Shown piece by piece: positions 3,312 through 36,196 of a stretch of 64,000 bases of DNA; within the stretch, counting starts at the first letter, position 1; the number at the start of each line of letters is the position of its first letter. Location: positions 51,264-115,263 of the forward strand of contig BEIL01000002.1 of the NCBI GenBank assembly GCA_002898235.1, written 5' to 3'. Made by a program: the position numbers and the translations under genes. The DNA comes from a bacterium HR35. Its GTDB lineage: Bacteria; Patescibacteriota; Minisyncoccia; UBA6257; HR35. The notes under the pieces were generated by a model that did no database searches, was not told where the DNA came from, and saw only the letters and a program-made list of their open reading frames with translations.

Positions 3312-3340
3312 TTGACTTTTTTGAAATTGTAGGTTATAAA
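3312..3340 (+). promoter_or_regulatory. sigma70-like promoter (TTGACT, 17-bp spacer, TATAAA) upstream of surface-protein gene
   Basis: ttgact 3312-3317, tataaa 3335-3340, read directly from the sequence. Confidence 0.4.
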
Positions 3341-3394
3341 AATTTATATAAAAGGTCGTTAATTAAATCGGAAACACTAAATTAACAAATAAAA

Positions 3395-3436
3395 TTTCCT
3401 TCTGCCTTGGGGAAATTAATGAAGGTAGAAGGAAAT
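3395..3436 (+). promoter_or_regulatory. 5'-UTR hairpin (about 11-bp stem, 18-nt loop) just upstream of the start codon at 3454
   Basis: tttccttctgcc (3395-3406) pairs with ggtagaaggaaa (3425-3436) with one mismatch; no U-tract follows, so not a terminator. Confidence 0.3.
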
Positions 3437-3453
3437 AAATAAAAATTAAAACA

Positions 3454-5289
3454 ATGAAAAAACTCTCTTTATTTTTAGGTCTCTCACTTTTAGCTTTTTC
3501 TTTCTTTCCTGGTTTTGCTACTAAAGCACAAACTTGCAATCCCGATGCTTTAGTTCCAGTTGCTTATGGCCAAAGAGGAGAAGCTGTTAGAAATGCTCAG
3601 GCTTGTTTAATGGAAGCTGGTTATGATATTCCAGCTGGAGCAACTGGTTATTATGGTTCTCAAACAAAAGCAGCTGTCAAAGCTTTTTATGCTGATTGGT
3701 ATGGAAATTGGGATGGAAGCAGATTGGGTCCTCAAGGAGTTCAACATCTTAAATCAGTTTTAGCAGGAGCTCCTTCTCAACCTTCTCAACCATCCCAACC
3801 ATCTCAACCATCTCAGCAAGATCAAACAGCTGCTCTCGTTGCTGCTGTTTTAGCTGCCCTTCAGCAAATGGGACTTCTTCCTTCAACTTCTACACAACAA
3901 CAAGCTTCTAAAGAGGAAGGCTTCTTGAGAGCAGAAAAAGATCCAACGGTTGCTGCTCCAGTTTTAAGAGAAGGTGAGAGTGGAAGAGTTGCTGGCTTTA
4001 GATTTAGAGCTGATAATGGAGCAGTTACTGTCCAATCCATCTTTTTGAGATGGGGAGGTTCAGTAGCTCCATATCGAGCTATTTCTGCTCTTAAGGTTGT
4101 TGACTCTTCTGGAAATACTCTTTATCAAACTCAAGTTGGTCCTTCAACTTTCCTTCAAGATTCTTCTCTTAATTACTACTTACCTATCACTGGTTTAAAT
4201 GTTCAAGTTCCTAAAAATGGCTACACCTCTGTTTTTGTTGAAGTAACAGTTGTGGGTACTCTTCCAAGCTCCGTTTCTTCAGGTCAATTCTATGTTAATC
4301 AAAATGATGTAAGAGGAGTTGATGGTGCTGGAGTTAATAGATTTGCTCCAGATAGCCCATTAACTTGGAATTTCTCTCTTCAACCATCACTTGCTGGCAA
4401 TGCTAGATTTGTTCTTTCTCTTAATCCCAATACACCAAAACAAGGATATGTTTTTGGCGATCCAGTCGATGGAAAAGCTTATCGAGTAAAAGTTCTCTCT
4501 TTCGATCTTCAAGCTAAAAACGATAACCTAAGAGTTACTCGAGTTGAAGGTAGCGTTACAAATACTTCAACTGTAAATGCAGTTTATCTTGCTCAAGGTT
4601 CTAACGTTATGGATGTTAGAACACCTTCTGCTACCGGAACTTTTGTTTTTGATATCACTCCGTCTAATTTTGTAGTTAATCGAGACCAATCAGTAACCCT
4701 TGATGTTTTAGTTGATTTCACTGCTAATGCTGCTCCAAGCGTAGCTACCCTTACAGTCTCTGTAGCCACAACCTCTGGCGTTAATAGCCTTGGCGATAAT
4801 GTTCAAACTACTTCAACAGTTGTTACTTCTGAACTTTTGAGAGCAGTAAGACTTGGTCCTCGATTTGCAGCAGTTGAAAAAACAATATCTGTAACTCGAG
4901 ATCAAAATAATAGCACCACAACTGTTCAATCTGTTGTCTTTAGAATCAATGTTACAGCCGTAGGTGGAACTTTATATGTTCCAGTTTCTAATACAGCTAC
5001 TATTACTCTAGAAACTGCTTCTGGAACCACTTCTGAAGTTAATGTTTCACCAACAACTGTAAGAGTTGGTTCTACAGTTGTTAGCCCTTCTGGTAGCTAT
5101 TACACTGTTCCTGAGGGTTCCACCTATGAGTTTGAATTTAGAACTTCAGGACAAACATTTACTGGTGCTCAATCTGTAAGAGCTCGCTTCTCATCTTTCG
5201 CTTTTGATAATGATAATTCTGGCAGCGTAATGGATACCGCTTCATTCCTTAATGATCTTCCTGAATTCTGGACAAATTGGAGCAACTAA
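3454..5289 (+). CDS. secreted surface protein: signal peptide, PG_binding_1-like domain, (PSQ)5 linker, long S/T/V/N-rich beta-type region
   Basis: N-terminal MKKLSLFLGLSLLAFSFFPGFATKA signal; GQRGEAVRNAQACLMEAGYD...GYYGSQTKAAVKAF matches the peptidoglycan-binding domain consensus; PSQPSQPSQPSQPSQ repeat; GC and codon usage clearly higher than flanking genes. Confidence 0.6.
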   Translation: MKKLSLFLGLSLLAFSFFPGFATKAQTCNPDALVPVAYGQRGEAVRNAQACLMEAGYDIPAGATGYYGSQTKAAVKAFYADWYGNWDGSRLGPQGVQHLKSVLAGAPSQPSQPSQPSQPSQQDQTAALVAAVLAALQQMGLLPSTSTQQQASKEEGFLRAEKDPTVAAPVLREGESGRVAGFRFRADNGAVTVQSIFLRWGGSVAPYRAISALKVVDSSGNTLYQTQVGPSTFLQDSSLNYYLPITGLNVQVPKNGYTSVFVEVTVVGTLPSSVSSGQFYVNQNDVRGVDGAGVNRFAPDSPLTWNFSLQPSLAGNARFVLSLNPNTPKQGYVFGDPVDGKAYRVKVLSFDLQAKNDNLRVTRVEGSVTNTSTVNAVYLAQGSNVMDVRTPSATGTFVFDITPSNFVVNRDQSVTLDVLVDFTANAAPSVATLTVSVATTSGVNSLGDNVQTTSTVVTSELLRAVRLGPRFAAVEKTISVTRDQNNSTTTVQSVVFRINVTAVGGTLYVPVSNTATITLETASGTTSEVNVSPTTVRVGSTVVSPSGSYYTVPEGSTYEFEFRTSGQTFTGAQSVRARFSSFAFDNDNSGSVMDTASFLNDLPEFWTNWSN

Positions 5290-5318
5290 AGGTTTTATTT
5301 TTCTTTTTTAGCACCCAT

Positions 5319-5350
5319 AGCCCCTGCATCCAGCAGGGGCTATTTTTTTA
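5319..5350 (+). terminator. rho-independent terminator of the surface-protein gene
   Basis: agcccctgc/atcca/gcaggggct GC-rich hairpin followed by a T8 tract. Confidence 0.75.
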
Positions 5351-5429
5351 TGATAAAAATTTTTAATTTATAATTAACTTATGAAAGAAATAGAATTTTT
5401 AAAGAAAAAGGCACAAAAATTTTATAGAA

Positions 5430-5591
5430 ATGCAAAACAATAATCAATCACAAAAAAGCTTGACATCGATTAGAAAAAAGATAGTTGAAGAAAAAAGAAA
5501 ATATTTTGAAAATTATCTTGAATATGCGAGGAAAATAAAAGAAAAAGCAATTGAAGTTTTAGGTGAAGCAAGAGTTTTAGTTTTTGGTTGA
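5430..5591 (+). pseudogene. truncated nucleotidyltransferase (Pol-beta/MNT-like) remnant
   Basis: 53-aa ORF ...LEYARKIKEKAIEVLGEARVLVFG* stops right at the conserved G[SG]..D motif region of minimal nucleotidyltransferases. Confidence 0.3.
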
Positions 5592-5676
5592 GAAGAATTT
5601 CAAAACTGGTGGCAAAAATTTATAAAATCTGATTATCTTGAAGTATAATTAAAATTAGAAGCTAATAAGCTATTCT

Positions 5677-5749
5677 GCGGCGGTAGTTCAGCTGGTAGAA
5701 CGCCTCCCTTCCAAGGAGGAGGTCGCGGGTTCAAATCCCGTCCGCCGCT
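5677..5749 (+). tRNA. tRNA-Gly (anticodon TCC)
   Basis: 73-nt cloverleaf folded by hand: acceptor GCGGCGG/CCGCCGC, D-stem GTTC/GAAC, anticodon stem CCTCC/GGAGG with loop CTTCCAA, T-arm GCGGG-TTCAAAT-CCCGT, discriminator T, no encoded CCA. Confidence 0.9.
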
Positions 5750-5773
5750 CAAATTTTTTTAGATTTTAATTCA

Positions 5774-7873
5774 ATGTTAGTTCAAGATTTTAAAAACATT
5801 CTCCTTTTTTTAATCTTTCTAATTCCTTTTACTTTGCTTATTTTTGATCCAGCAGTTCTTTTTCCTTATATTACGACCAAGGCTTTAATTTTTAGAGTTT
5901 TAGTTACTCTTTCTTTACCTTTTCTTTTTTATATTCTCCTTTTAGACAAAAAACCATTTCAAAAAATTAAAAATTATCTTCTTTTAGCTTGTTTTTTCTA
6001 TTTTCTTGTTTATTCTCTTTCTGGCTTTTTAGGACTTAATCCTTATCGTTCTTTTTGGGGTAATGCTGAAAGAATGGAAGGAATTTGGTCTTTATTTTTC
6101 TATTTTCTTTATTTTTTTATTTTGTACCTTCTTTTCTCTTATGACCCAAAACTTAAAAAAACAATTTTTTGGTCTTTCGCTTTAGTCTCTTTTTTGATAA
6201 GCATTTTAGAAATTTATCAATATTTTACCTTGGGAGCTTTAAGGCCATCAGCTACTTTAGGTAATCCTACTTATATTGGTTTTTTTAATCTTTTAATGTT
6301 CTTTCTTTTACTTTATTTTTATTTTGAAACAAAAGATAAACTTGAAAAACCAATTTTTATTTTTTTGGCTCTTTTAAATCTTTTTTCTCTTTTTACTTCA
6401 GAAACTCGAGGAAGCATTTTGGGGCTCTTAGCTGGTCTTTTTATTTTTGGTTTTTATTATGCCATTTTTTCACAAAAAGAACTTAAAAACAGGATTAAAA
6501 TCATATCTTTATTCTTAGTTGCTATCATAGCTTTTGTTTTAATACTTTTAAGTCCAATTTCTGCTTTTCTTCCAGGAATTAATCGACTTAGTGAAACTTT
6601 AAGAAACCCAGTTTCTGTTTTTCCTCGATTGTTTGCTTGGAAAATCTTTTTTGATGGCTTTAAGTCCAGTCCATTAATTGGTTACGGTCCAGAAACAGAA
6701 CCAATTGTTTTTTTTAAGTTTTTCGACCCAAAAATTTACGAATATGAAGCGGCTATTTTTGATCGTCCCCATAATAAATTTGTTCAAATTTTAGTTAATT
6801 CAGGAATTTTAGGAATGATTAGTTGGCTTTCAATTTTTATTGCTTTTTTTTATTATCTTTTTCAAAACAAAGAAATGAATTCTCTTCAAAAAGCTTCTCT
6901 TTCAGGATTTATTTTTGCTTATCTAGTTCAAAACTTTTCTTTATTTGATATGCAAGCAAGCTATTTAGTTTTTTTCTTTGGCTTAAGTTTAGTTATTCCT
7001 AAATTAGAATTTAAGTTTGATGAAGAAAAATTTATTCGGCCTTATTTAATTTTAGTTGGTGGTTTAAGTTTAATCTTTTTAACTTTTCATTTTAGTCACT
7101 ATTACATTCTTTCCTCTTTGATTAAAACAAGTAAAATGACAGATTATAATAAAGCTGCCGAAGAATTTGAAAGACTTTCAGAAATTGCTGGACCATTTTT
7201 AACCGAGGAAGCTATTCATCTAGTCCATCCTTATTTTTTTAAAGTAATTGAAAGTGGAGATAAATCAGCTTTAGAAGCAATTTTCCGTCTTTACGAAGTA
7301 ATTAAAAAAGCCTATAAAAAAGAACCTCTTGATCAACGATTGATAACCAAATCTTCTTCTCTTGATTTATATTTAGCCAATTTATTTTTAGTTAATAATT
7401 TACCCAAATATAATGACTATTTAACTAGTTTTCAAGAAACCATAGAAAAATCGATTGAATTTTACCCAAAAAATTACGAATTAATTATTTTTTATGCCCA
7501 AAACCTTGTTTTTTTAGAAAAAAACTATCCAAAGAAATTTAATTTTAAAGATAAGGTAATAAATCTTGTAGTTTCTCGAGAAAAATATTTTGAAAATTTC
7601 CCTCCTTATTTTTTAAATGAAGCAAAAATTATTTCCTTTTATGACAAAGATTTAGCTAAAGAAAAATTAAAGTTAGCTATCAAAAAAGGCTTAAATTTAA
7701 AAAAGGAACAATATGTTTCAACTATTTTAGATGTTTTGTCAGAAATAAAGGATAAAGAAATTTTAATTCAAGTTGTTAAAATTGTGGAAAAAGAAAAATT
7801 TTCAACTCAAACTCAAGAAAAAATTGAAAAAATTAAACTTGAATTTCTTTCAACTAGCACTCTCCACAATTAA
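5774..7873 (+). CDS. Wzy_C / O-antigen ligase family polytopic membrane protein with ~280-aa C-terminal soluble helical-repeat domain (possible O-oligosaccharyltransferase)
   Basis: About 12 predicted TM helices; periplasmic-loop motif DRPHNKFVQILVNSGILGMISW resembles the Wzy_C/WaaL/PglL signature (HN.YLQ.L.E.GIIG). Confidence 0.55.
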   Translation: MLVQDFKNILLFLIFLIPFTLLIFDPAVLFPYITTKALIFRVLVTLSLPFLFYILLLDKKPFQKIKNYLLLACFFYFLVYSLSGFLGLNPYRSFWGNAERMEGIWSLFFYFLYFFILYLLFSYDPKLKKTIFWSFALVSFLISILEIYQYFTLGALRPSATLGNPTYIGFFNLLMFFLLLYFYFETKDKLEKPIFIFLALLNLFSLFTSETRGSILGLLAGLFIFGFYYAIFSQKELKNRIKIISLFLVAIIAFVLILLSPISAFLPGINRLSETLRNPVSVFPRLFAWKIFFDGFKSSPLIGYGPETEPIVFFKFFDPKIYEYEAAIFDRPHNKFVQILVNSGILGMISWLSIFIAFFYYLFQNKEMNSLQKASLSGFIFAYLVQNFSLFDMQASYLVFFFGLSLVIPKLEFKFDEEKFIRPYLILVGGLSLIFLTFHFSHYYILSSLIKTSKMTDYNKAAEEFERLSEIAGPFLTEEAIHLVHPYFFKVIESGDKSALEAIFRLYEVIKKAYKKEPLDQRLITKSSSLDLYLANLFLVNNLPKYNDYLTSFQETIEKSIEFYPKNYELIIFYAQNLVFLEKNYPKKFNFKDKVINLVVSREKYFENFPPYFLNEAKIISFYDKDLAKEKLKLAIKKGLNLKKEQYVSTILDVLSEIKDKEILIQVVKIVEKEKFSTQTQEKIEKIKLEFLSTSTLHN

Positions 7874-7944: not shown

Positions 7945-10900
7945 ATGAGACAAAAACAAAAAATTTCTTTTATTAAAAGGTTTTTTACCAAAGAAAATGT
8001 TCATCCCTACGACGAAGTAAATTGGATAAAAACTACAGCTGAAATTCCTGGTTCTGGTTTTAGAATGGAAGATGTAGAATTTCCTGATTTTTACAGCCAA
8101 AATGCAATTAATATCATTGCTTCTAAATATTTCAAAGTAAATAAAGGCAAACAAGAAAAAAGCTTAAAAGAACTTATTGATCGGGTTGTCAAAACCTCTA
8201 AAAAATGGGGATTAGAACAAGGATATTTTGATGAAAAAGAGGCAGAAATTTTTGAAGCAGAATTAACTTATATTTTACTTCATCAATATGCTGCTTTTAA
8301 TTCTCCTGTTTGGTTTAATTTTGGAGTTGAAGGAAGACCTCAAACTGGTGCTGCATGTTTTATCTTAGATGTTGAAGATAGTATGGAGTCAATTTTGGAT
8401 TGGATTAAAACCGAAGGAATGATTTTTAAAGGAGGTTCTGGTTCAGGAGTTAATTTATCAAAACTAAGAGCAAAAGGAGAACCACTTTCAACTGGTGGAG
8501 TTTCTTCAGGGGTTATTTCTTTTATGAAAGCAGCCGATGCTGTTGCTGGAAGTATAAAATCTGGAGGCACGACGAGGAGAGCGGCAAAAATGGTTGTTTT
8601 GAATGCTGACCATCCTGAAATTATGGATTATATTCGAGTTAAAGCTGAAGAAGAAAATAAAGTTAGAGCTTTGATGGAAGCAGGTTATGATATGACTGAT
8701 TTAAACAATCCTTTGTGGCAAAATATTTTCTTTCAAAATGCAAATAATTCAGTAAGAATTCCTGATGCTTTAATGGAGGCAGCAATGAAAGATGGTGAAT
8801 GGAAAACTTATTATCGCACCTCAGGTAAAGTAGCCCAAGTTTATAAAGCTAAAGATATTTTATGGGAAATTGCTAAAGCTGCTTGGGAATGTGGTGATCC
8901 AGGAGTTCAATTCGATGACACTATCCAAAAATGGCATACTTGTAAAAATTCAGGAAGAATTGAAGCAACTAATCCATGTGTTCCAGGTGATACCTTAATT
9001 GCAACAAATGAAGGTTGGAAAAGAATAAAAGATTTAGTTGGCAAAAATCCAATTATTATTACTCAGAAAATAGAAACGCGGACTACATACGGACTATACA
9101 CGGACTATACACGGACAGAACACAGACAACACACGGACAAAAAGGACAAAATAAATATGTCCGATAAATCTATGTCTAGTCCAAAAAAATCCATTAATAA
9201 GTCCGAACAGTCCGTGTTAAGTCCGATAGAGTCTGTTGAAAATCAGGTTGTTGAGAAAAGAGCTTTAAGAGTTTTTAAAACAGGAATCAAGCCAGTTTAT
9301 AAAATAATAACTCGTTCTGGTTATGAATTAAGAGCAACAGAGGACCACCCAATTTATATTGAAGGCAAAGGAGATGTTAAAGTTAAAGACCTTAAACCAG
9401 GAGATAAAGTAAGATTAATCGGTGCCGGCTTTGGTAATAAATCTTTAGATTCAGATATTGCTTTTATGATTGGTTATTTTGCTGGCGATGGAGCTATAAG
9501 TTATGATTACAACCATCAAAGATTTAGTATTTTCTTTACTGGAGGCAATGAAGATATTTATGCTTTAAATTACATCAAAAGCACAATAAATGAAAAACTT
9601 CAATCTAAACACAAAGCTCAAACTAATTTAAGAAGATTAATCTCAGAGTTTGTTGTTGCTACAAGTAGAGAAAATGTTGCTGAAATTTTAAATCAATATT
9701 TTGATTTTCAAAGAAAAATATTTAAAGATTCAGTTTTCGATTTAGACAAAGAATCAATCAAAAATATTCTTAAGGGATTATTTACTGCTGATGGAACAAT
9801 TACTGGTAATCCTCAAAAAGGATTTTATGTTGGTTTAGATAGTTCTTCTTTAGAGCTTTTAAAACAAGTACAGCTTTTGCTTTTAAATTTTGGCATTAAG
9901 TCAAAAATTTATAAAAATAGAAGAAGCAAATTAGAACAATACTTACCTGATTCTCAAAGAAAATTAAAACTTTATCAGGTAAAACAACAACATAGTTTAA
10001 GAATAACAAGAAGTTCAAGAGTAATTTTTGAAAAAGAAATTGGTTTTTATGAATTGCATCAAAAGCAAGAAAAATTAGAAAATATTAATCAAAAATATGA
10101 AGCTTATAAAGACCATCTTTATGATGAAATTAAAGAAATAGTTTTTGATGGCATTGAAGAAGTTTATGATTTAACTGAGCCAGAAACATCTCATTTTGTT
10201 GCTAATGGTATTTTAGTTCACAATTGTGCTGAATATATATTTCTTAACTGGACAAGCTGCAATCTTAGTTCAATTAATCTCTTAAAGTTTCTTAAAGATG
10301 ATAGTAAATTTGATGTTCCTGCATTTCTTCATACTGTTAGAGTAATGTTTTTAGCTCAAGATATTATGGTTTCTAAAGCTGATTATCCTCATCCAAAAAT
10401 TGCTGAAGAAACTAAAAAATACCGAACAATCGGCTTGGGTTATACAAATTTAGGTGCTTTGATTATGGCATTAGGCCTTCCTTATGATTCTGATGAAGCT
10501 CGAGATTTAGCTGCCAGCATTACAGCTTTAATGACAGGCGAAGCTTACAAACTTTCAACTGAAATTTCAGCCAAACTTGGTCCATTTCCTGAATATGAAA
10601 AAAATAAAGAACCAATGCTTGAAGTAATGGAGCTTCATCGTAAAGCATTAAAAAATGTTAATGAAAATGATTTTAATAAAGAGATTTTAAATAAAGCTAA
10701 AGAAGTATGGGATGAAGTAATTGAGCAAGGTAAAAAATATGGTTTTCGTAATGCTCAAGCAACAGTTATCGCGCCTACTGGGACAATAAGTTTTATGATG
10801 GATGCTGATACTACTGGAGTTGAACCTGATTTTGCTTTAGTTAAAATGAAACAACTTGTCGGCGGTGGTTATATGAAAATTGTAAATAAAACAGTTCCTC

Positions 10901-11841
10901 TTGCTTTAAGAAGGCTTGGTTATAGCGAAAAGGAAATCGAAGATATTGTTAAACACTTAGAAGAAACCCAAAATATTGAAACAGCTCCGCATCTTAAACC
11001 AGAACATTTACCTGTTTTTGATTGTGCTATTAAACCACCTGGAGGAAAAAGATATATTCATTGGTTAGGACATGTAAAGATGGTTGCTGCTATTCAACCC
11101 TTCATAAGTGGTGGAATTTCAAAAACCTTCAATATGCCTAATGAAACAACAATTCAAGAAATTTATGATGCTTACTTTACTGCTTGGAAATTAGGAATTA
11201 AATGTTTTTCTGTTTATCGTGATGGTTCAAAAGCAACTCAAGCTTTATATACTGAAAAGAAGGAAAAGAAACCTCAAGAAAAACTTGGTAGAAGAAGGTT
11301 ACCTGATATTAGGCCATCTGAAACTCATAAATTCTCAGTTGGTGGTCATGAGGGTTATCTAACTTATAGCACTTTTGAAGATGGCAGTCTTGGAGAAATC
11401 TTCATCCGAATGGCAAAGCAGGGCAGTACTTTAGCAGGCCTTTTAGATGCTTTTGCAATTGCAGTTTCAATTGCTCTTCAATATGGAGTGCCCTTAAAAG
11501 AACTTGCTAGTAAATTCATTAATATGAGATTTGAACCATTGGGCTTAACTAATAATGAAAAAATAAAAACAGCTACCTCAATAGTGGATTACATATTTAA
11601 ATATTTAGCTTACCGTTTTCTTTCTAAAGATGAATTAGAAGAATTGGGTCTTTTGACTGAAGTTGATAAAGAAAAACTAGTTTTAAAAGAACATCCAACG
11701 CTATTTGAAATAAAAAATAATCCAAACAATAATTTAGCTGAAATTTCAGGCCCCCCATGTGTTCATTGTGGAGGAATAACAATTAAAACTGGTGCTTGTT
11801 ATACTTGTATAAGTTGCGGAGAAACTACAAGTTGTGGCTAA
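7945..11841 (+). CDS. nrdJ: adenosylcobalamin-dependent (class II) ribonucleotide reductase NrdJ, interrupted by an in-frame intein
   Basis: Extein junction TNP|C..HN|CAEYIFLNWTSCNLSSINL restores the RNR active-site motif NPCAE...CNL; C-terminal CxxC..CxxC zinc ribbon; extein length about 882 aa. Confidence 0.75.
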   Translation: MRQKQKISFIKRFFTKENVHPYDEVNWIKTTAEIPGSGFRMEDVEFPDFYSQNAINIIASKYFKVNKGKQEKSLKELIDRVVKTSKKWGLEQGYFDEKEAEIFEAELTYILLHQYAAFNSPVWFNFGVEGRPQTGAACFILDVEDSMESILDWIKTEGMIFKGGSGSGVNLSKLRAKGEPLSTGGVSSGVISFMKAADAVAGSIKSGGTTRRAAKMVVLNADHPEIMDYIRVKAEEENKVRALMEAGYDMTDLNNPLWQNIFFQNANNSVRIPDALMEAAMKDGEWKTYYRTSGKVAQVYKAKDILWEIAKAAWECGDPGVQFDDTIQKWHTCKNSGRIEATNPCVPGDTLIATNEGWKRIKDLVGKNPIIITQKIETRTTYGLYTDYTRTEHRQHTDKKDKINMSDKSMSSPKKSINKSEQSVLSPIESVENQVVEKRALRVFKTGIKPVYKIITRSGYELRATEDHPIYIEGKGDVKVKDLKPGDKVRLIGAGFGNKSLDSDIAFMIGYFAGDGAISYDYNHQRFSIFFTGGNEDIYALNYIKSTINEKLQSKHKAQTNLRRLISEFVVATSRENVAEILNQYFDFQRKIFKDSVFDLDKESIKNILKGLFTADGTITGNPQKGFYVGLDSSSLELLKQVQLLLLNFGIKSKIYKNRRSKLEQYLPDSQRKLKLYQVKQQHSLRITRSSRVIFEKEIGFYELHQKQEKLENINQKYEAYKDHLYDEIKEIVFDGIEEVYDLTEPETSHFVANGILVHNCAEYIFLNWTSCNLSSINLLKFLKDDSKFDVPAFLHTVRVMFLAQDIMVSKADYPHPKIAEETKKYRTIGLGYTNLGALIMALGLPYDSDEARDLAASITALMTGEAYKLSTEISAKLGPFPEYEKNKEPMLEVMELHRKALKNVNENDFNKEILNKAKEVWDEVIEQGKKYGFRNAQATVIAPTGTISFMMDADTTGVEPDFALVKMKQLVGGGYMKIVNKTVPLALRRLGYSEKEIEDIVKHLEETQNIETAPHLKPEHLPVFDCAIKPPGGKRYIHWLGHVKMVAAIQPFISGGISKTFNMPNETTIQEIYDAYFTAWKLGIKCFSVYRDGSKATQALYTEKKEKKPQEKLGRRRLPDIRPSETHKFSVGGHEGYLTYSTFEDGSLGEIFIRMAKQGSTLAGLLDAFAIAVSIALQYGVPLKELASKFINMRFEPLGLTNNEKIKTATSIVDYIFKYLAYRFLSKDELEELGLLTEVDKEKLVLKEHPTLFEIKNNPNNNLAEISGPPCVHCGGITIKTGACYTCISCGETTSCG
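8977..10224 (+). mobile_element. intein (416 aa) with LAGLIDADG homing-endonuclease domain inserted at the RNR catalytic Cys
   Basis: Block A CVPGDTLIATNEG, block B ATEDHPIYIEG, two LAGLIDADG motifs (IGYFAGDGAIS, LKGLFTADGTITG), block F/G ...SHFVANGILVHN followed by the +1 Cys. Confidence 0.85.
9078..9236. repeat. imperfect palindromic array of ~11-nt repeats (cggac units on the left, gtccg units on the right) lying in-frame inside the intein
   Basis: tacacggacta repeated in tandem about 6 times, then mirror-image gtccg-containing units; local centre ggacaaaataaatatgtcc near 9142-9160; GC-richer than surroundings. Confidence 0.6.
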
Positions 11842-22441: not shown

Positions 22442-22867
22442 ATGGAAAAAATAGAAATTATTTACCGTTTTATTTTAGCAGCTATTTTGGGAGGAATTAT
22501 TGGTACTGAAAGGAGCTTTTTTAAAAAACAAGCTGGTTTAAGAACTTTTGCTTTAGTAAGTTTGGGGGCTTGTCTTTTTGGTTATTTGGGTTATCGACTT
22601 TCTTTTATTGATCCAGCTTCAACTTCAAGAATAATTTCTAACTTAGTTGTAGGTATTGGTTTTTTAGGAGCTGGTCTTATTTTTTTACATGAAGAAAAAA
22701 TTTTTGGCTTAACAACAGCTGCTGCTCTTTGGACAACAGCTGCTATTGGCGGAGCAGTTGGTTTAGGCTATTATTTTGAAGCTTTTTTAGTTACGCTGCT
22801 GACGGTCATCATTTTAACTTTATGGTACTATTTTGAAAAGTTAATAAAGAAAGATGAAAATCAGTAA
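22442..22867 (+). CDS. MgtC/SapB-family membrane protein
   Basis: ILAAILGGIIGTERSFFKKQAGLRTFALVSLGACLF matches the MgtC N-terminal signature. Confidence 0.65.
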   Translation: MEKIEIIYRFILAAILGGIIGTERSFFKKQAGLRTFALVSLGACLFGYLGYRLSFIDPASTSRIISNLVVGIGFLGAGLIFLHEEKIFGLTTAAALWTTAAIGGAVGLGYYFEAFLVTLLTVIILTLWYYFEKLIKKDENQ

Positions 22868-23948
22868 AGAAATTGAAAGTATTTTTATTTTTTTAAGCAC
22901 AATTATTGGTTTAGGAGTTTTTGTTTTACCTTATGCTTTTTTACAAGGCAAGTTGTGGTTTATTTTTTGGTTAGGTTTTTGGTTTATTGTTTTTTATATA
23001 ATCCATTTAATTTTTGCTGAAATTATTTTTCAAACAAAAGAAAAACATAATTTACCTGGTTTAGCTGCAATTTATCTTCATCCTAATCTTAAGCATTTAG
23101 TATGGATTTTTGATTATTTTGGAATGATGGGTGTTTTTTGGATTTATCTTTTATCCTTAGAAAAATTTTGGGGGACTATCTTTCCTGATAAAACTTTCTT
23201 AGTTAAACTTATTTTTGTCTTTTTTAATCTTTTTTTTATTACTAAAAATCTCAAAATTTTTGCTGGCTTTGAAACTATTTTAGGAATAAGCATTATTTTT
23301 CTTTTTTTGATAATTTCTTTTTGGTTCGGAATTAAAGCTGATATTAATAACTTTACCAATCTTTTTAATTTCCAAGGAGATTTCTTTTTGCCTTACGGAG
23401 TTCTACTTTTTGCTTTTTCAGGTATTTCAGCTGTACCCCTTGTTTTTGATCTTGTTGGCAAAGAAAAAGAAAAATTCAGAAAAATCAATTTATTTTCTTT
23501 AGTTTTAGTGACTTCAATTTATCTTTTTTATTCTTTAAGTATCATTGGCTTTTTAGGAAATAAAACTTCCGAAATTTCTTTAGATGTTTTAAAACCCTTT
23601 ATCCCCTTGCCTCTTTTTCTATTTATTTTGATTTTAGTTACTTTTAATATTATGTTAGTTGATTTAGCTTTTTATTTAAAAAGAGGTCTGCAAGCTGATT
23701 ATGGTCTTTCAGAAAGAAGAACTAATTTAATATTAATTTTTTCGATTTTACTTCTCCTTTTTCTTCCCGCAAATTCTTTAATTAAAATTATTAGTCTTAT
23801 TAGCGATGTTTTTCTTGGTTTCAATCTTTTGATTTTAAATTTAATTTATTTAAAACTTAAAGAAAAAAAATTTTTTATTTTCCCTAAGTTTTTAATTATT
23901 TTTATTTCTTTAATTTTGTTTTTGGGAATGATCTATGAAATTTTTTAA
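22854..23948 (+). CDS. polytopic membrane protein (about 10 TM), possible permease
   Basis: Hydrophobic ORF; no diagnostic motif identified. Confidence 0.35.
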   Translation: MKISKEIESIFIFLSTIIGLGVFVLPYAFLQGKLWFIFWLGFWFIVFYIIHLIFAEIIFQTKEKHNLPGLAAIYLHPNLKHLVWIFDYFGMMGVFWIYLLSLEKFWGTIFPDKTFLVKLIFVFFNLFFITKNLKIFAGFETILGISIIFLFLIISFWFGIKADINNFTNLFNFQGDFFLPYGVLLFAFSGISAVPLVFDLVGKEKEKFRKINLFSLVLVTSIYLFYSLSIIGFLGNKTSEISLDVLKPFIPLPLFLFILILVTFNIMLVDLAFYLKRGLQADYGLSERRTNLILIFSILLLLFLPANSLIKIISLISDVFLGFNLLILNLIYLKLKEKKFFIFPKFLIIFISLILFLGMIYEIF

Positions 23949-25161
23949 ACCTAAAGGATTTACTATTATTGAAATTTTAATTGTACTTTTTGTAATTTCA
24001 GTTTTGGCTGTTATTTTATTTTTTGCCTTTAACACTACTGACATTATTAAAAGAACTAGAGATGCTAAAAGACTTAATGATCTTCAAGCAATTAATTCTG
24101 CTATTCAAGCTTTACTTAATCAAAATCCTGAAATCAATCTGGGTACAGATAATTTGGTTTATCTTTCCTTGCCTGATTCTAATCCTAATTGCTCTTCTTA
24201 TCCAAATTTACCGCCCATATTTTCTCCTTTTTCTTATCGCTGTGCTTCTACTTCAACTTTTAGAAAAACTGATGGTAATGGTTGGCTACCTTTAAATTTT
24301 TCCAGCTCTCTTTTTTCTTTTTCTTCTTTACCAATCGATCCTTTAAATAATGGTGATTATTTTTATGTTTATTTTAAGCAAGGAAATAAATATAAACTGA
24401 CAGCCAGAATGGAATCAGAAGCCTTTGGTTATCAAATGATTAATGATGGTGGCATTGAACCTCTTTTATATGAGTTAGGAAATGATTTAAGTTTGCCAAC
24501 ACCCCAAAGCGGTTTGGTTTTATATTTACCTTTTGAAGAAGGAACAGGAACAATAACTTACGATTTAAGTGGATATAATAATAACGGCACTCTTTATAAT
24601 TTTAATTTTACTACTTCTTCGGGCTGGGTAAAGGGAAAAATAGGTTGGGGTTTAGCTTTCGATGGTGTGGATGATTATGTAAGTGTAGCCACCTCAACCA
24701 CTTTGGATTTAAGAAATAAAGATTTTTCAGTTATCTATTGGATTTATAGATTTTCTACGACTTCTAATTATCAAAGAGTTTTTTCTCAAAACGAAGAAAG
24801 CAGTACTGATTGTACTAATTTGAATTTTGGTATTTCTAATTCAGATACTGCTTATTTTGATATTTATAATTGTGGAGGTACTACAGGTTTAAGAGGAACT
24901 ATTTTTTTAAATAAAAATCAGTGGTGGAATTTAGTATTTGTTAATAATAAATCAACTTCTATCAATGATTATGTTTTTGTAAATGGAAAATTAGATATTA
25001 ATGGCTACAGGGATCCTTATCAAGGGCCTCCTGGTGATATTAAACTAAGCGTTCCTTGGACAGCTTATCAATTTTATGGAGTTATCGATGAAGTGAGGGT
25101 TTATTTAAGATCACTTAATAATCTTGAAGCAAAATTGATTTACCTTTATGGTATTAAATAG
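23935..25161 (+). CDS. type IV pilin-like protein with C-terminal LamG/concanavalin-like domain
   Basis: Prepilin leader and N-terminal helix KG|FTIIEILIVLFVISVLAV; beta-rich C-terminal domain. Confidence 0.6.
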   Translation: MKFFKPKGFTIIEILIVLFVISVLAVILFFAFNTTDIIKRTRDAKRLNDLQAINSAIQALLNQNPEINLGTDNLVYLSLPDSNPNCSSYPNLPPIFSPFSYRCASTSTFRKTDGNGWLPLNFSSSLFSFSSLPIDPLNNGDYFYVYFKQGNKYKLTARMESEAFGYQMINDGGIEPLLYELGNDLSLPTPQSGLVLYLPFEEGTGTITYDLSGYNNNGTLYNFNFTTSSGWVKGKIGWGLAFDGVDDYVSVATSTTLDLRNKDFSVIYWIYRFSTTSNYQRVFSQNEESSTDCTNLNFGISNSDTAYFDIYNCGGTTGLRGTIFLNKNQWWNLVFVNNKSTSINDYVFVNGKLDINGYRDPYQGPPGDIKLSVPWTAYQFYGVIDEVRVYLRSLNNLEAKLIYLYGIK

Positions 25162-32113: not shown

Positions 32114-35086
32114 ATGGAATCATTAATTAACAATATAGAACAAAAAATCCTAGAATTTTGGAAAAAAGAAAATATATTTAAGAAATCATTAGCGCAAAAT
32201 AGAAAAGGAAATTTTTTTAGCTTTTTTGATGGCCCTCCCTTTGCCACTGGTTTGCCTCACTACGGTCACATTTTAGCATCTACGCTTAAAGATTTGTATT
32301 GCAGATATGCTTCTATGAAAGGTTATTATGTACCAAGAAGATGGGGGTGGGACTGTCACGGACTACCAATTGAAAACTTAGTAGAGCAAGAAATGGAGGT
32401 TAAAACCAAAAAAGATATCGAGAAAATTGGGATAGAAAAATTTAACGCTATTTGTAAATCTAAGGTTTTAAAATTTGCTAGTGAATGGGAAGATATGGTA
32501 GATAGAATAGGGAGATGGATAGAATTTAAAAATGCTTATAAAACTATGGATACTTCTTATATGGAGTCTGTTTGGTGGGCATTTAAGCAATTTTGGAATA
32601 AGGGATTAATTTATGAAGGAATAAAACCTCTTTTATACTGTCCTAGGTGCCAAACTCCGGTTTCTAAATTTGAAATTATAATGGACAAAAATTATAAAGA
32701 AATAGAAGTAGATTCCATCGTTGTCAAATTCCCGCTTGTTAAAGAAAAAACTCAATTACTAAAAAAGCAAAATTTATCAAAACCGGTTTATCTTTTAGTA
32801 TGGACTACCACTCCTTGGACTTTACCGAGTAATGTGGCTATAGGAATAAGGAAAGATTTGGATTATTTATTGGTAGAAAATGATGAGGGTTTTTTTATAA
32901 TTCATAAACAAGCTTTAAAATTATTTGATAGACGTCCGAGATTAATAAAAGTTATAAAAGGTAAGGAATTAATAGGGAGTAAATATCTATTATTGTTTTC
33001 TAGAAAAGATCATGAAACGGGATTGATTATAGAAGATCCTTACATTACAGAAGAGGGAACTGGGTTAGTTCATTTAGCCCCCGCGTATGGAGAAGAAGAT
33101 TTTCATCTATGCAGAAAACACAGATTACCTATAATCACCACATTGAATGAAGGGGGTATTTTTGAATTTAATTGTCCAGATTTTCTAAAAGGAGCATATT
33201 TTGAAAAGGCGAATGAAATTATTATTAATTTTCTTTCTTCTAATAATATGCTCTTTAAAGTAATAAAATTTAAACACAGATATCCTTTTTGTTGGAGATG
33301 TGGAACAGCTTTATACTATAATGCAGTTACTTCTTGGTTTATAGATATTAAAAAAATAAAAAAAATGCTAGTGGAGCTTAATAAAACAATAGATTGGCAC
33401 CCAGCCCATCTTAAATATGGTAGATTTCTTAAGGGTTTGCAAAGTGCGCCTGATTGGAATATTTCCCGATGGAGATTCTGGGCTACACCGATCCCTTTAT
33501 GGAGATGTCAAAATATTAATTGTAGAAATATAGTCTGTATCGGAAGTATAAAAGAACTTCGTAATAAAGCAATTAATTTTGATAAAGTCTATCCTGATTA
33601 TCATAAGAATATAATCGATTTACATAGGCCTTATATAGATATGGTTTTATTGAGATGCGAAAAATGTAAAGATATTATGGTAAGAGTAAAAGATGTTCTT
33701 GATTGTTGGTTTGAATCAGCTAGTATGCCGTTTGCTGAAATTCATTATCCATTTGAGAATAAAAAATTTTTTGAAAAGAGATATCCGGCCGATTTCGTAG
33801 CTGAATATATAGCCCAAACAAGGGCGTGGTTTTATGTTATGCTTGTAGTAAACGGTGTTTTATTTCATCAAGCTCCGTTTAAACATGTATTAACGACAGG
33901 CACTGTACTTAACGAAAAAGGAGAAAAGCTTTCCAAATCTAGAAAGAATTTTCCAGACCCATGGCATATTATTCACAAATACGGAGCAGATGCTCTAAGG
34001 TTCTATCTTTTATCGTCTCCTGTAATTGAAGCTAGAGATTTGTTTTTTTCAGAAGAAGGAGTAAAAAATGTTTATAGAAAAATAGTTAATATTCTCTTGA
34101 ATCTAGTAGCTCTATACAAATTTTATGAAATGGGCGCTTTGGCTAAAAAATTAAATATAGAAAAATTTAACTTTAAAACTGGTATTAAAGATACTCTTCA
34201 TAAATGGATTTTATCTTATATTTACTATAAAAAGAATCTAATTAAAGATGCTCTTGATAATTATGAAACTAAAAAGGCTTGTAAAGAGATAGAAAATTGT
34301 ATTAATATGATTTCTCTATGGTATGTTAAGTTTATAAAGGATTTAATTAAAATTAAAGATCAAGAGAGTATTGTGGTATACAGTTGGATTCTTTATCAGT
34401 TATCTAAAATAATAGCTCCGTTTATGCCATTTATGGGGGAATATTTATATCAATCATTGAATTTTGTGACAAAAAAATCTGTTCACTTAGAAAAATTGGA
34501 AGATATTAATTATTTAGTAAATAAAAAACTTATTGACGATATGGAGAAGGTAAAAAAAATAATACAATTAGGCTTATCAGCAAAAAAACCAGTGGTATAA
34601 AATTAAAATATCCTGTAAGCCAAATTATAATCAATATTAAATTAAAGCCTAGCTTAATTTCTTTAATTAAAAAAATATTAAATGTTGAGAAGGTTATAGT
34701 AGATCCAAATGCTGAATACGAAAATTACAAAGAAGATTATATAAAAGCAGAAGATGGTAATGTTAAAATTTTTATTAAAAAAACCGCTGATTTTAATTTA
34801 ATTATAAAAGGAATTTTAAGAGAATTTACAAGATATATAAATTCAATTAGAAAAAAACTACAACTTACGCCAAAAGACAAAATAATTACAGAAATTTTTA
34901 TTTATGATGAGACGTTATTTAAAAATTTAACTGAAACTAGTTTAAGTGAACTAAAGACTAATACATATTCTGAAGACCTTAAAATAACAAAAATTGAAAA
35001 AGAAATATATGAACCGAATGTTTTAGAGTTTAAAGTAGGCCCCAATAAAGAATTTAAAGTTAAAATTAAAATCACTAAAATATGAA
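32114..35086 (+). CDS. ileS: isoleucyl-tRNA synthetase, eukaryote-like type 2; reading frame broken at an A7 run (34582-34588). Track ORF is 32114-34600; the C-terminal ~160 aa continue to 35086 in another frame
   Basis: GPPFATGLPHYGHIL (HIGH), KLSKS, CP1 editing domain; adding one A gives ...LSAKKTSGIKLKYPVSQ... matching the IleRS ..GIKVRQPL.. region. Confidence 0.8.
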
Positions 35087-36196
35087 GTACAAAATACCTA
35101 TTTTGAGACCTTTTATGCCTAAAGGCATTATAAATAAACTAAGAAAGGTTTTATACTCAGGATGGATAGGCGAAGGTCCTGTAGTTAAACAATTTGAACA
35201 AGCTTTGAAAGATTACCTAGGAAATAGATACATTGTTTCTGTTAATAGCGGAACTAGTGCTCTTTGGATAGCTTATCATTTAGCTGGGATTAAAAAGGGT
35301 GATGTTGTAATAACAACCCCCCTAACTTGTAGTGCTACAAATATACCCTTGTTACATTTGGGAGCTAAAATAGTCTGGGCAGATATAGACATCAATACCG
35401 GTAATATAGACCCTCTTGATGTTGAAAATAAAGTTAAAAAGATAAAAAAAGTAAAAGCTATTGTAATTGTAGATTATGGTGGTATGCCGTGTGATATGGA
35501 TCGATTAATATTTATTTCAAAAAAATATAAAATACCTATAATAGAAGATGCTGCTCAGGCATTGGGAGCAGAATATAAAGGCATTAAGATAGGAAATCAT
35601 AATGATTATGTTTGTTTTAGCTTTCAAGCTGTTAAAACTATTACTACTGTAGACGGAGGCGCTCTATGTCTTAAAAATAGAAAAGATTATGAAAGAGCAA
35701 AAAACTTAGGTGGTTTGGTATTGATAGAGATAAAAAATATTCGAAGAAAAAACCCTGGCAATACAATATAACAGAAGCGGGATATAAAATGCATTTAAAT
35801 GATGTTTTAGCTACAATAGGCTTAGAACAATTAAAGTATGTAGATTTATTAGTAAATAAACAACGGCGTGGGGCTGAATATTACTATAAAAACCTACAAA
35901 ATATGAAAGAAATTAGAGTTTTGAAAGAACCCGATGGCTGTAAGTCTTCTTATTGGTTATTTACTGTGTTAGTCGAGCGGAGAGAAAAATTTATTAATAC
36001 ATTAAATGCGTATGGAATAGAATGTAGTCCAGTTCATCAAAGAAATGATAAACTCTCTATATTTGGCAAACTTGATAAATCATTAAAAAATACTGATATT
36101 TTTAACAAAAAAGCAGTATGTTTACCTAATGGCTATTGGGTTAGCCAAAAAGATAGAAGATTTATAGTGGACACTATTAAAAGAAATTTTGCTTAG
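35082..36196 (+). CDS. DegT/DnrJ/EryC1/StrS-family PLP-dependent sugar aminotransferase; frame broken at an A6 run (35699-35704); track ORFs are 35082-35771 and 35789-36196
   Basis: SFQAVKTITT (PLP-lysine); corrected frame gives ...ERAKKLRWFGIDRDKKYSKKKPWQYNITEAGYKMHLNDVLATIGLEQL matching the family consensus. Confidence 0.75.

Follow-up and report, generated by a model that had tools for sequence, protein, structure and literature searches.

Introduction

Does a tiny, uncultivated bacterium of the Candidate Phyla Radiation (CPR, or Patescibacteria) encode, side by side, an O-oligosaccharyltransferase (O-OTase) and the surface protein that it glycosylates? This question is raised by a 64,000-nucleotide stretch of the genome of bacterium HR35 (assembly GCA_002898235.1, contig BEIL01000002.1, positions 51,264 to 115,263; hereafter the window), an AT-rich DNA (GC 0.288) in which two open reading frames (ORFs) of the plus strand encode a 611-aa secreted peptidoglycan-binding (PGB) surface protein (3454-5289) and a 699-aa membrane protein of the Wzy_C family (5774-7873). 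The names borne by homologs assign the window to CPR of the Parcubacteria/Paceibacteria/Minisyncoccia type. An earlier reading of the sequence (the original prediction) proposed them as an O-linked protein glycosylation pair. Our preferred interpretation, with a probability that we put at about 0.4, regards the 699-aa protein as an O-OTase of the WsfB/PilO kind. Its external tetratricopeptide repeat (TPR) domain would recruit secreted proteins, the neighbouring coat protein being a principal substrate and the low-complexity linker of this protein the likeliest site of modification. We regard the two genes as a plausible but unproven O-OTase/substrate pair, and as the first such candidate that we could find for CPR bacteria.

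Structure and assembly of the CPR envelope are described as unclear. S-layers are on record for some species, although genes have not been tied to them, and the idea that an S-layer might be glycosylated has so far been speculation. CPR genomes are reported without the lipid A and lipopolysaccharide (LPS) genes (lpxC/kdsA), and since these are reportedly missing, the canonical acceptor of the WaaL ligase would be absent. The Pfam family Wzy_C spans WaaL ligases, the PglL/PilO O-OTases and others, which can be separated only by experiment or by clade-specific motifs. In the literature on protein glycosylation or the Wzy_C family in CPR bacteria, essentially nothing relevant was found.

Conservation of the gene pair

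Taking the surface protein as starting point, we compared 15 genomes with enough sequence, the window included. The gene for the Wzy_C enzyme with its TPR domain lies downstream of the surface-protein gene and on the same strand in 14 of them, so that the co-occurrence check attached to the original prediction came out in its favour. Two genomic arrangements were recognized. In backbone A (9 genomes, including the window), the order is a hydrolase gene on the opposite strand, RecG, the PGB protein, a variable insert, tRNA-Gly, Wzy_C and ribonucleotide reductase (RNR); in backbone B (5 genomes), an FtsK gene on the opposite strand is followed by the PGB protein, Wzy_C, rpoB and rpoC, with gaps of 82-337 nt and without the tRNA. 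An intermediate arrangement was found in locus L025, where a 1132-aa PGB-type protein is followed by Wzy_C, RNR and rpoB. The neighbours of the pair are therefore RecG, RNR, FtsK and rpoB, with no LPS locus. The pair outlives change in both of its flanks and is more than backbone synteny; its adjacency gains weight only because it survives in the FtsK/rpoB setting of backbone B.

The same comparison bears on the possibility that the enzyme is a general O-OTase, or one directed mainly at other proteins (type IV pilins, for instance), with the 611-aa protein as one substrate at most and the adjacency as incidental. Most known O-OTase/substrate adjacencies involve pilins (pglL homologs adjoin a pilin substrate gene in the same orientation in 21/31 cases), and the PglL of Neisseria, a general O-OTase, is not adjacent to pilE. 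The window itself encodes a type IV pilin-like protein at 23935-25161 (and another at 22854-23948), with an N-terminal methylation motif (N_methyl) and a LamG/concanavalin-like domain, which would be an alternative O-OTase substrate; in relatives, genes of pilin type lie a few kb upstream, and paralogs with the PGB and linker module occur elsewhere without a Wzy_C neighbour. However, pilin-like genes adjoin the enzyme in no locus examined, whereas the PGB protein does so in 14/15 genomes and on two backbones, and we hold this alternative to be unlikely.

A WaaL-fold enzyme with a predicted external repeat domain

The central part of the enzyme matched Wzy_C (PF04932) with 73.6 bits against a cut-off of 31.7 (aa 198-352, E=1.9e-20), and its AlphaFold2 (AF2) model was of high confidence (pLDDT 94.1, pTM 0.91). 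The only solved structure detectably related to it was that of WaaL (7TPG), by sequence (E=1.8e-5) as well as by Foldseek (E=1.2e-5, target TM-score 0.66, 437 aligned columns), and the polytopic fold displays a large external loop after transmembrane (TM) helix 9, as in WaaL. Among 63 homologs with identities down to about 20%, 14 residues were invariant: K36, E99, R100, N164, R212, R285, W289, G303, G305, D330, H333, G344, G347 and F391. Of these, R212, R285 and H333 align to the conserved Arg/Arg/His of WaaL 7TPG; R215, R288 and H338 are essential in Escherichia coli WaaL and are conserved in PglL as R224, R298 and H349 (Schulz et al.). The loop DRPHNKFVQILVNSGILG (aa 330-347, DRPHN...G..G), whose resemblance to the WaaL/PglL signature had been pointed out from the sequence, holds four of the invariant residues (D330, H333, G344 and G347).

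With respect to topology, the 12 TM helices originally counted have to be corrected to 13, as deduced from helix positions and the positive-inside rule. This arrangement places all invariant residues on the external side, and likewise the C-terminal domain. The mean number of Lys and Arg residues was 18.3 in the predicted cytoplasmic loops versus 4.8 in the external short loops, with an excess inside in 63/63 homologs, a bias that puts the TPR domain on the catalytic face of the membrane; all 63 also possess TM13, followed by at least 160 aa of C-terminal tail. The C-terminal helical-repeat domain described in the original prediction was recognized as TPR-like in the AF2 model, by Foldseek and through TPR Pfam matches in homologs. 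Its Foldseek neighbours (AspH, LbcA and the TPRs of SPY/OGT) are all peptide- or protein-binding, and since the domain is universal in the family, external and has such structural neighbours, a protein acceptor is the reading we favour.

A ligase that moves an undecaprenyl-pyrophosphate (Und-PP)-linked polymer onto a non-protein acceptor, for example a membrane glycolipid, has to be weighed against this reading; the adjacency of the two genes would then reflect a conservative order of envelope genes. TacL of Streptococcus pneumoniae, a 397-aa Wzy_C lipoteichoic-acid ligase with a glycolipid acceptor, shows Wzy_C enzymes in that role in monoderms, and the closest solved structure is that of a ligase with a lipid acceptor; the insulation of the two genes by a terminator, the lack of a PglL_A match and the clustering of distant homologs with glycan-assembly genes, MurB and SecA instead of surface proteins, all described below, point in the same direction. 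Nevertheless, WaaL and TacL lack the external TPR found throughout this family, TacL being too short for a C-terminal domain of such length. The pair has also been kept through two independent backbone rearrangements, and no teichoic-acid genes were seen near it. This lipid-ligase explanation is rather improbable in our judgement.

The neighbouring surface protein

As the original prediction had it, the product of the upstream gene is a secreted protein with a PG-binding domain (PG_binding_1, aa 41-78, E=5e-8), a linker containing (PSQ)5 and a body rich in Ser and Thr. Its AF2 model (mean pLDDT 87.5) comprises a signal peptide, the PG-binding domain, a disordered linker and three beta-sandwiches. 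The residue preceding the predicted signal-peptide cleavage site, A25, is nearly invariant in the family, and the sole two Cys of the protein, C28 and C51, are both invariant among homologs and likely form an extracytoplasmic disulfide. The linker is disordered in the model except for an amphipathic helix at aa 126-138; in an alignment of 66 homologs, S/T/P/Q-rich low-complexity segments occupied the linker in 66/66 and the central amphipathic helix was found in nearly all, the PSQ repeat itself not being conserved.

The 611-aa protein is acidic (pI 5.2), with V 12.5%, S 10.6%, T 9.9%, A 9.2%, G 8.0%, K 2.0% and I 1.4%, and with Ser and Thr making up 20.5% of the mature form. It displays several traits of S-layer-type proteins, being secreted, equipped with a wall-anchor module, acidic, poor in Cys and rich in hydroxy and hydrophobic residues; a further hallmark, fold similarity to a known S-layer protein or lattice self-assembly, found no counterpart in the protein. 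The label "peptidoglycan hydrolase-like" given by JGI to 3454-5289 was rejected, as there is a binding domain and no catalytic domain. The gene stands out by its GC content (0.395 versus 0.288 for the window; GC1 0.54, GC2 0.49, GC3 0.163), and the same offset, with genome-like GC3 and an excess in GC1 and GC2, was observed in all 13 orthologs examined. Horizontal transfer was discarded as the source of this jump because GC3 matches that of the other genes; the high GC results from an amino-acid composition unusual for the genome.

We could detect 138 members of the family, almost all of them labelled as CPR or else unlabelled metagenome proteins. Contigs carrying it under the labels Thermodesulfobacteriota, Omnitrophota or "Thermoplasmata archaeon" (L019, L023; protein P0091) are probably mis-binned CPR. 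The N-terminal module (signal peptide, PG_binding_1 and Q/S/T/P linker with amphipathic helix) is also reused on unrelated, larger beta-rich bodies in many CPR genomes, with examples of about 730-750 aa (L021, L024, L026, L027, L031, L034, L036, L038, L041 and L043) and longer ones in L025 (1132 aa) and L097 (1163 aa), and paralogs sharing it coexist with the 611-aa family in the same genomes. As with SLH or CWB2, this module seems to serve for wall anchoring in CPR bacteria at large.

Expression signals and intergenic region

The coordinates of the features of the locus are collected in Table 1. Upstream of the surface-protein gene, the hexamers TTGAC(A/T) and TATAA(T/A) were present in 16/16 orthologous loci examined, in tandem in 7 of them. 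A variant of the leader motif AGGTCGTTAATTAA was found directly 3' of the -10 box in all 10 upstream regions inspected; the strict pattern occurred in 10/16 loci, in one of them beside the start codon instead. A hairpin with z <= -2 was detected at the equivalent place of the 5' untranslated region (5'UTR) in 13/16 loci with unrelated stem sequences, that is, the structure is conserved and the sequence is not. Promoter, leader motif and hairpin together make up a conserved cassette (3312-3453 in the window, with counterparts in L001-L020 and L069). An Rfam scan of the 5'UTR and the intergenic region returned the tRNA alone and no family for the hairpin, and a known RNA element was accordingly rejected. 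Past the stop codon, a GC-rich terminator with a dG of -20 to -30 kcal/mol follows within 4-46 nt in 15/15 loci compared. On the strength of promoter, hairpin and terminator, we read the surface-protein gene as probably heavily expressed from a monocistronic, stabilised mRNA, in the manner of major surface or S-layer proteins.

Table 1. Features of the surface-protein/Wzy_C locus, in window coordinates.
Feature	Position	Strand	Basis
Near-consensus sigma-70-type promoter (TTGACT 3312-3317, 17-nt spacer, TATAAA 3335-3340)	3312-3340	+	Sequence reading
Conserved leader motif AGGTCGTTAATTAA, directly 3' of the -10 box	3353-3366	+	Orthologous upstream regions
5'UTR hairpin, 15-bp stem, ending 18 nt 5' of the start codon	3394-3436	+	dG -21.7 kcal/mol, z = -6.7 versus shuffles
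Signal peptide (aa 1-25; MKK and hydrophobic core, predicted cleavage after ATKA)	3454-3528	+	Sequence reading
Peptidoglycan-binding domain, PG_binding_1 fold (aa 28-105)	3535-3768	+	
Low-complexity S/T/P/Q-rich linker (aa 106-153), candidate O-glycosylation region	3769-3912	+	AF2, homologs
(PSQ)5 inside the linker (aa 107-121)	3772-3816	+	
Three tandem beta-sandwich (Ig/cohesin-like) domains	3913-5289	+	S+T 22.6%, V 14%, K 1.8%
Strong intrinsic terminator, 11-bp stem with 7 G-C pairs, then T7	5317-5350	+	
HEPN/MNT toxin-antitoxin relic (HEPN fragment 5390-5434; nucleotidyltransferase fragment 5451-5609)	5390-5609	+	tblastn
tRNA-Gly(TCC), 23 nt 5' of the Wzy_C start codon	5677-5750	+	ARAGORN; Rfam 74 bits
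WaaL-fold membrane domain, 13 TM helices	5774-7135	+	Pfam, PDB 7TPG, AF2
Wzy_C (PF04932) match	6365-6829	+	Pfam
Loop DRPHNKFVQILVNSGILG	6761-6814	+	
C-terminal TPR-like helical-repeat domain (aa 455-699), predicted extracytoplasmic	7136-7873	+	AF2 helices, Foldseek, TPR Pfam in homologs

The tRNA-Gly and the nucleotidyltransferase relic that the original prediction had placed between the two genes were both identified. The nucleotidyltransferase fragment aligned over 53 aa with an MNT-type enzyme that L002 carries intact at this site (74% identity, E=5e-24) and is terminated by a stop exactly at the catalytic G-S motif, and the HEPN fragment (15 aa) matched the L002 module with 60% identity over 15 aa (E=8e-5). 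The tRNA-Gly lies directly 5' of Wzy_C in every backbone-A relative and is not found in backbone B. The suspected recombination-prone spot proved to be an insertion hot spot: the insert between the surface-protein terminator and the tRNA-Gly (5351-5676 in the window; also L001-L005 and L010) is variable, reaches 7.4 kb, and contains in relatives HicAB, ParE, intact HEPN/MNT, a secreted protein of about 360 aa with no Pfam match, or a 754-aa paralog of the surface protein. In the window, it holds the decayed HEPN/MNT relic only.

Downstream of the pair, the class II RNR gene at 7945-11841 is split by an intein with a LAGLIDADG endonuclease, and its orthologs carry no intein (L001, 898 aa), one (L005, 1327 aa) or two (L003, 1678 aa).

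Distant homologs and glycan pathway context

A metagenome profile scan with the enzyme detected more than 514 relatives. The neighbourhoods of 68 distant loci (enzyme homologs at 27-34% identity) contained SecA (22), NDP-sugar epimerase/dehydratase (12), MurB (12) and family 4 glycosyltransferase (GT4; 10) genes, together with a Wzx-like flippase (10/68) and a Bac_transf initiating phosphoglycosyltransferase (9/68), the latter two mostly upstream and divergent. Two of these contexts were confirmed by precomputed Pfam annotation (L070 and L071), each with a large LTD-domain surface protein nearby. As judged from their gene content, the flippase, initiating transferase, GT4 and NDP-sugar neighbours tie the enzyme family to an undecaprenyl-type glycan pathway. 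Proteins that are secreted and rich in Ser and Thr stood directly beside distant homologs in 6/81 cases versus 7/302, a modest enrichment (one-sided Fisher p=0.036). Adjacency to the PGB protein is a trait of the clade of the window and its sister clades, and not of all CPR.

Tandem paralogs of the Wzy_C and TPR architecture were present in 5/68 distant CPR loci (L081, L087, L090, L095 and one more); the two copies could share out the work, one acting for example as polymerase and the other as ligase, or differ in acceptor specificity.

In the window, the glycan-related genes comprise a GT2, a methyltransferase and a DegT/DnrJ/EryC1 sugar aminotransferase, apparently split into 35082-35771 and 35789-36196 (the first ORF covers profile positions 7-198 of 360), which could reflect a frameshift or mark a pseudogene; in relatives, DegT is intact and lies a few kb upstream of RecG. 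No LPS genes were seen among the Pfam-scanned ORFs of the window or in the neighbourhoods of its relatives.

These distant loci bring forward a further explanation, in which the enzyme polymerizes, as a Wzy-type protein, a wall or capsular polysaccharide of the Wzx/Wzy-dependent kind. An LCP enzyme would attach this product to peptidoglycan, with the TPR domain contacting a chain-length regulator or the wall. Loci with Bac_transf, GT4s and a Wzx-like flippase are classic Wzx/Wzy-type clusters, L006 has an LCP gene close to the pair, the tandem paralogs in five loci could be a polymerase and a ligase, and Pfam Wzy_C includes some polymerases. However, Wzy polymerases diverge with each repeat unit, and 14 invariant residues plus a conserved TPR down to about 20% identity would be unusual for one of them; the two Arg and the His of the HN-x9-G-xx-G loop, all invariant, form the ligase triad of WaaL and PglL, and in the clade of the window the flanks of the gene are free of flippase, initiating-transferase and GT genes. 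We consider a polymerase unlikely.

Discussion

The protein-acceptor interpretation can be compared with several known systems. On the basis of described architecture, one likeness is to the S-layer O-OTases of monoderms, namely WsfB with its substrate SpaA (Paenibacillus alvei) and WsaB (with WsaA) with SgsE (Geobacillus stearothermophilus). Wzy_C is present in both enzymes; a C-terminal TPR motif is reported for WsfB, as it is for PglL, and a separate TPR protein is encoded just upstream of WsaB, so that each system combines a Wzy_C membrane enzyme with TPR in a monoderm host. Their acceptor is an abundant, secreted, wall-associated surface protein, which the 611-aa protein resembles provided that its abundance is as its expression signals suggest, and the glycan that they transfer is lipid-linked, having been built by an initiating Gal-1-P-type transferase together with GTs. 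Unlike them, the pair described here is not located in a dedicated slg glycan-biosynthesis cluster and has no flanking glycan genes, which appear only at distant homologs; its surface protein also differs from their substrates in its PG_binding_1 anchor and Ig/cohesin-like domains.

With PglL (Neisseria, Acinetobacter) and PilO/TfpO (Pseudomonas), the enzyme shares the Wzy_C core, the Arg/Arg/His triad and a gene position beside a candidate substrate in the same orientation, and low-complexity Ser-rich regions are modified in those systems. The differences are the missing PglL_A and Wzy_C_2 matches, the strong terminator and tRNA between the genes, and the hosts and adjacent substrates, which are diderm Proteobacteria and type IV pilins in the case of PglL/PilO. 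WaaL differs in having 12 TM helices, no TPR and a lipid A-core acceptor, and the gene studied here lies outside any LPS locus. TacL, another Wzy_C enzyme of a monoderm, moves an Und-PP-linked polymer on the outer face of its membrane, yet with its 397 aa and no TPR it is unlike a 699-aa enzyme with a predicted external TPR. Finally, OGT and SPINDLY are glycosyltransferases fused to a substrate-selecting TPR array, and TMTC is another TPR-bearing protein glycosyltransferase; the catalytic folds and sugar donors of OGT and SPINDLY are unrelated, and the resemblance is an analogy of design only.

Under the interpretation that we favour, the locus would be a cell-envelope module of two genes in a CPR lineage of the Paceibacteria type. 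The surface-protein gene, transcribed as its own unit by virtue of a strong promoter, a stabilising 5' hairpin and a strong terminator, would yield a secreted coat protein anchored to peptidoglycan, probably at very high abundance and either S-layer-like or a stalk adhesin, and the Wzy_C gene is probably co-transcribed with the tRNA-Gly. The WaaL-fold transferase would take a preassembled glycan from its undecaprenyl-pyrophosphate carrier at the outer face of the membrane, the fused external TPR domain would most likely recruit a protein acceptor, and glycosylation would take place on Ser/Thr (or Tyr) residues of the surface protein encoded next to it, with the low-complexity linker as the most plausible region. 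A universal external TPR and an unusually high conservation weigh against the lipid-ligase and polymerase alternatives.

Several observations speak against this interpretation. The PglL subfamily assignment by profile search, named as a check in the original prediction, failed: the search returned generic Wzy_C only, with no PglL_A (PF15864) or Wzy_C_2 (PF11846) Pfam match at E<=1 and no PglL-type or O-OTase-specific NCBIfam match, IctB alone being returned with E=1.8e-4, far below its cut-off. We take the missing motifs to exclude the PglL clade alone and not O-OTase activity, because the bona fide O-OTase PilO is also without them. The terminator insulates the surface-protein gene from Wzy_C in 15/15 loci, for which reason a co-transcribed operon was rejected, and in backbone A the two genes are further parted by the tRNA and the variable inserts. 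Within that backbone, Wzy_C is equally faithful to RNR, which makes synteny alone weak evidence in these small genomes, and we did not accept adjacency as proof of function. In the complete genome AP024681.1 (L014), the site lacks Wzy_C and RNR while the surface protein and its linker are kept; the gap falls between the genes for a 364-aa secreted protein and an XerC-type integrase, which suggests that Wzy_C and RNR were excised or relocated together beside a site-specific recombinase gene. This genome was dropped as a test of linker degeneration, given that the linker is retained and the enzyme may sit elsewhere in the genome. Among the 68 distant loci, a PGB protein with a Q/S/P linker and beta-rich body lies within three genes of the enzyme in only 3, and mainly glycan-assembly genes, MurB and SecA stand beside it; a Pfam scan of the ORFs of the 64-kb window found no flippase or initiating transferase; and TPR domains also occur in polysaccharide-export scaffolds. 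The proposed glycosylation pair is supported by its co-occurrence, its WaaL/PglL-type fold and triad, its external TPR, its position outside any LPS locus and its universal low-complexity linker, and finds no support in the PglL assignment, the insulation of the genes and the distant loci.

A broader proposal, that the 611-aa family is the coat (surface-layer) protein of its Paceibacteria lineage and that the Wzy_C and TPR architecture, with over 500 relatives, is a phylum-wide TPR-guided machine of protein O-glycosylation, seems to us rather doubtful at present. If true, it would give the first defined glycoprotein system and the first rule of envelope assembly for CPR bacteria.

An O-OTase encoded beside its substrate is of a known kind; what would be distinctive here is the pairing of a PG_binding_1 anchor with an enzyme whose WaaL fold is extended by a 13th TM helix and an external TPR. 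Should the O-OTase link not hold, what remains is a conserved envelope enzyme, as yet unexplained, in bacteria without LPS. If it is true, the coat glycoprotein that episymbionts show to their hosts and phages would be defined, and a compact O-OTase with a built-in substrate-recognition domain would be added to the glycoengineering toolbox. CPR bacteria represent a large share of bacterial diversity, and this locus offers a concrete gene pair from which the assembly of their envelope can be approached.

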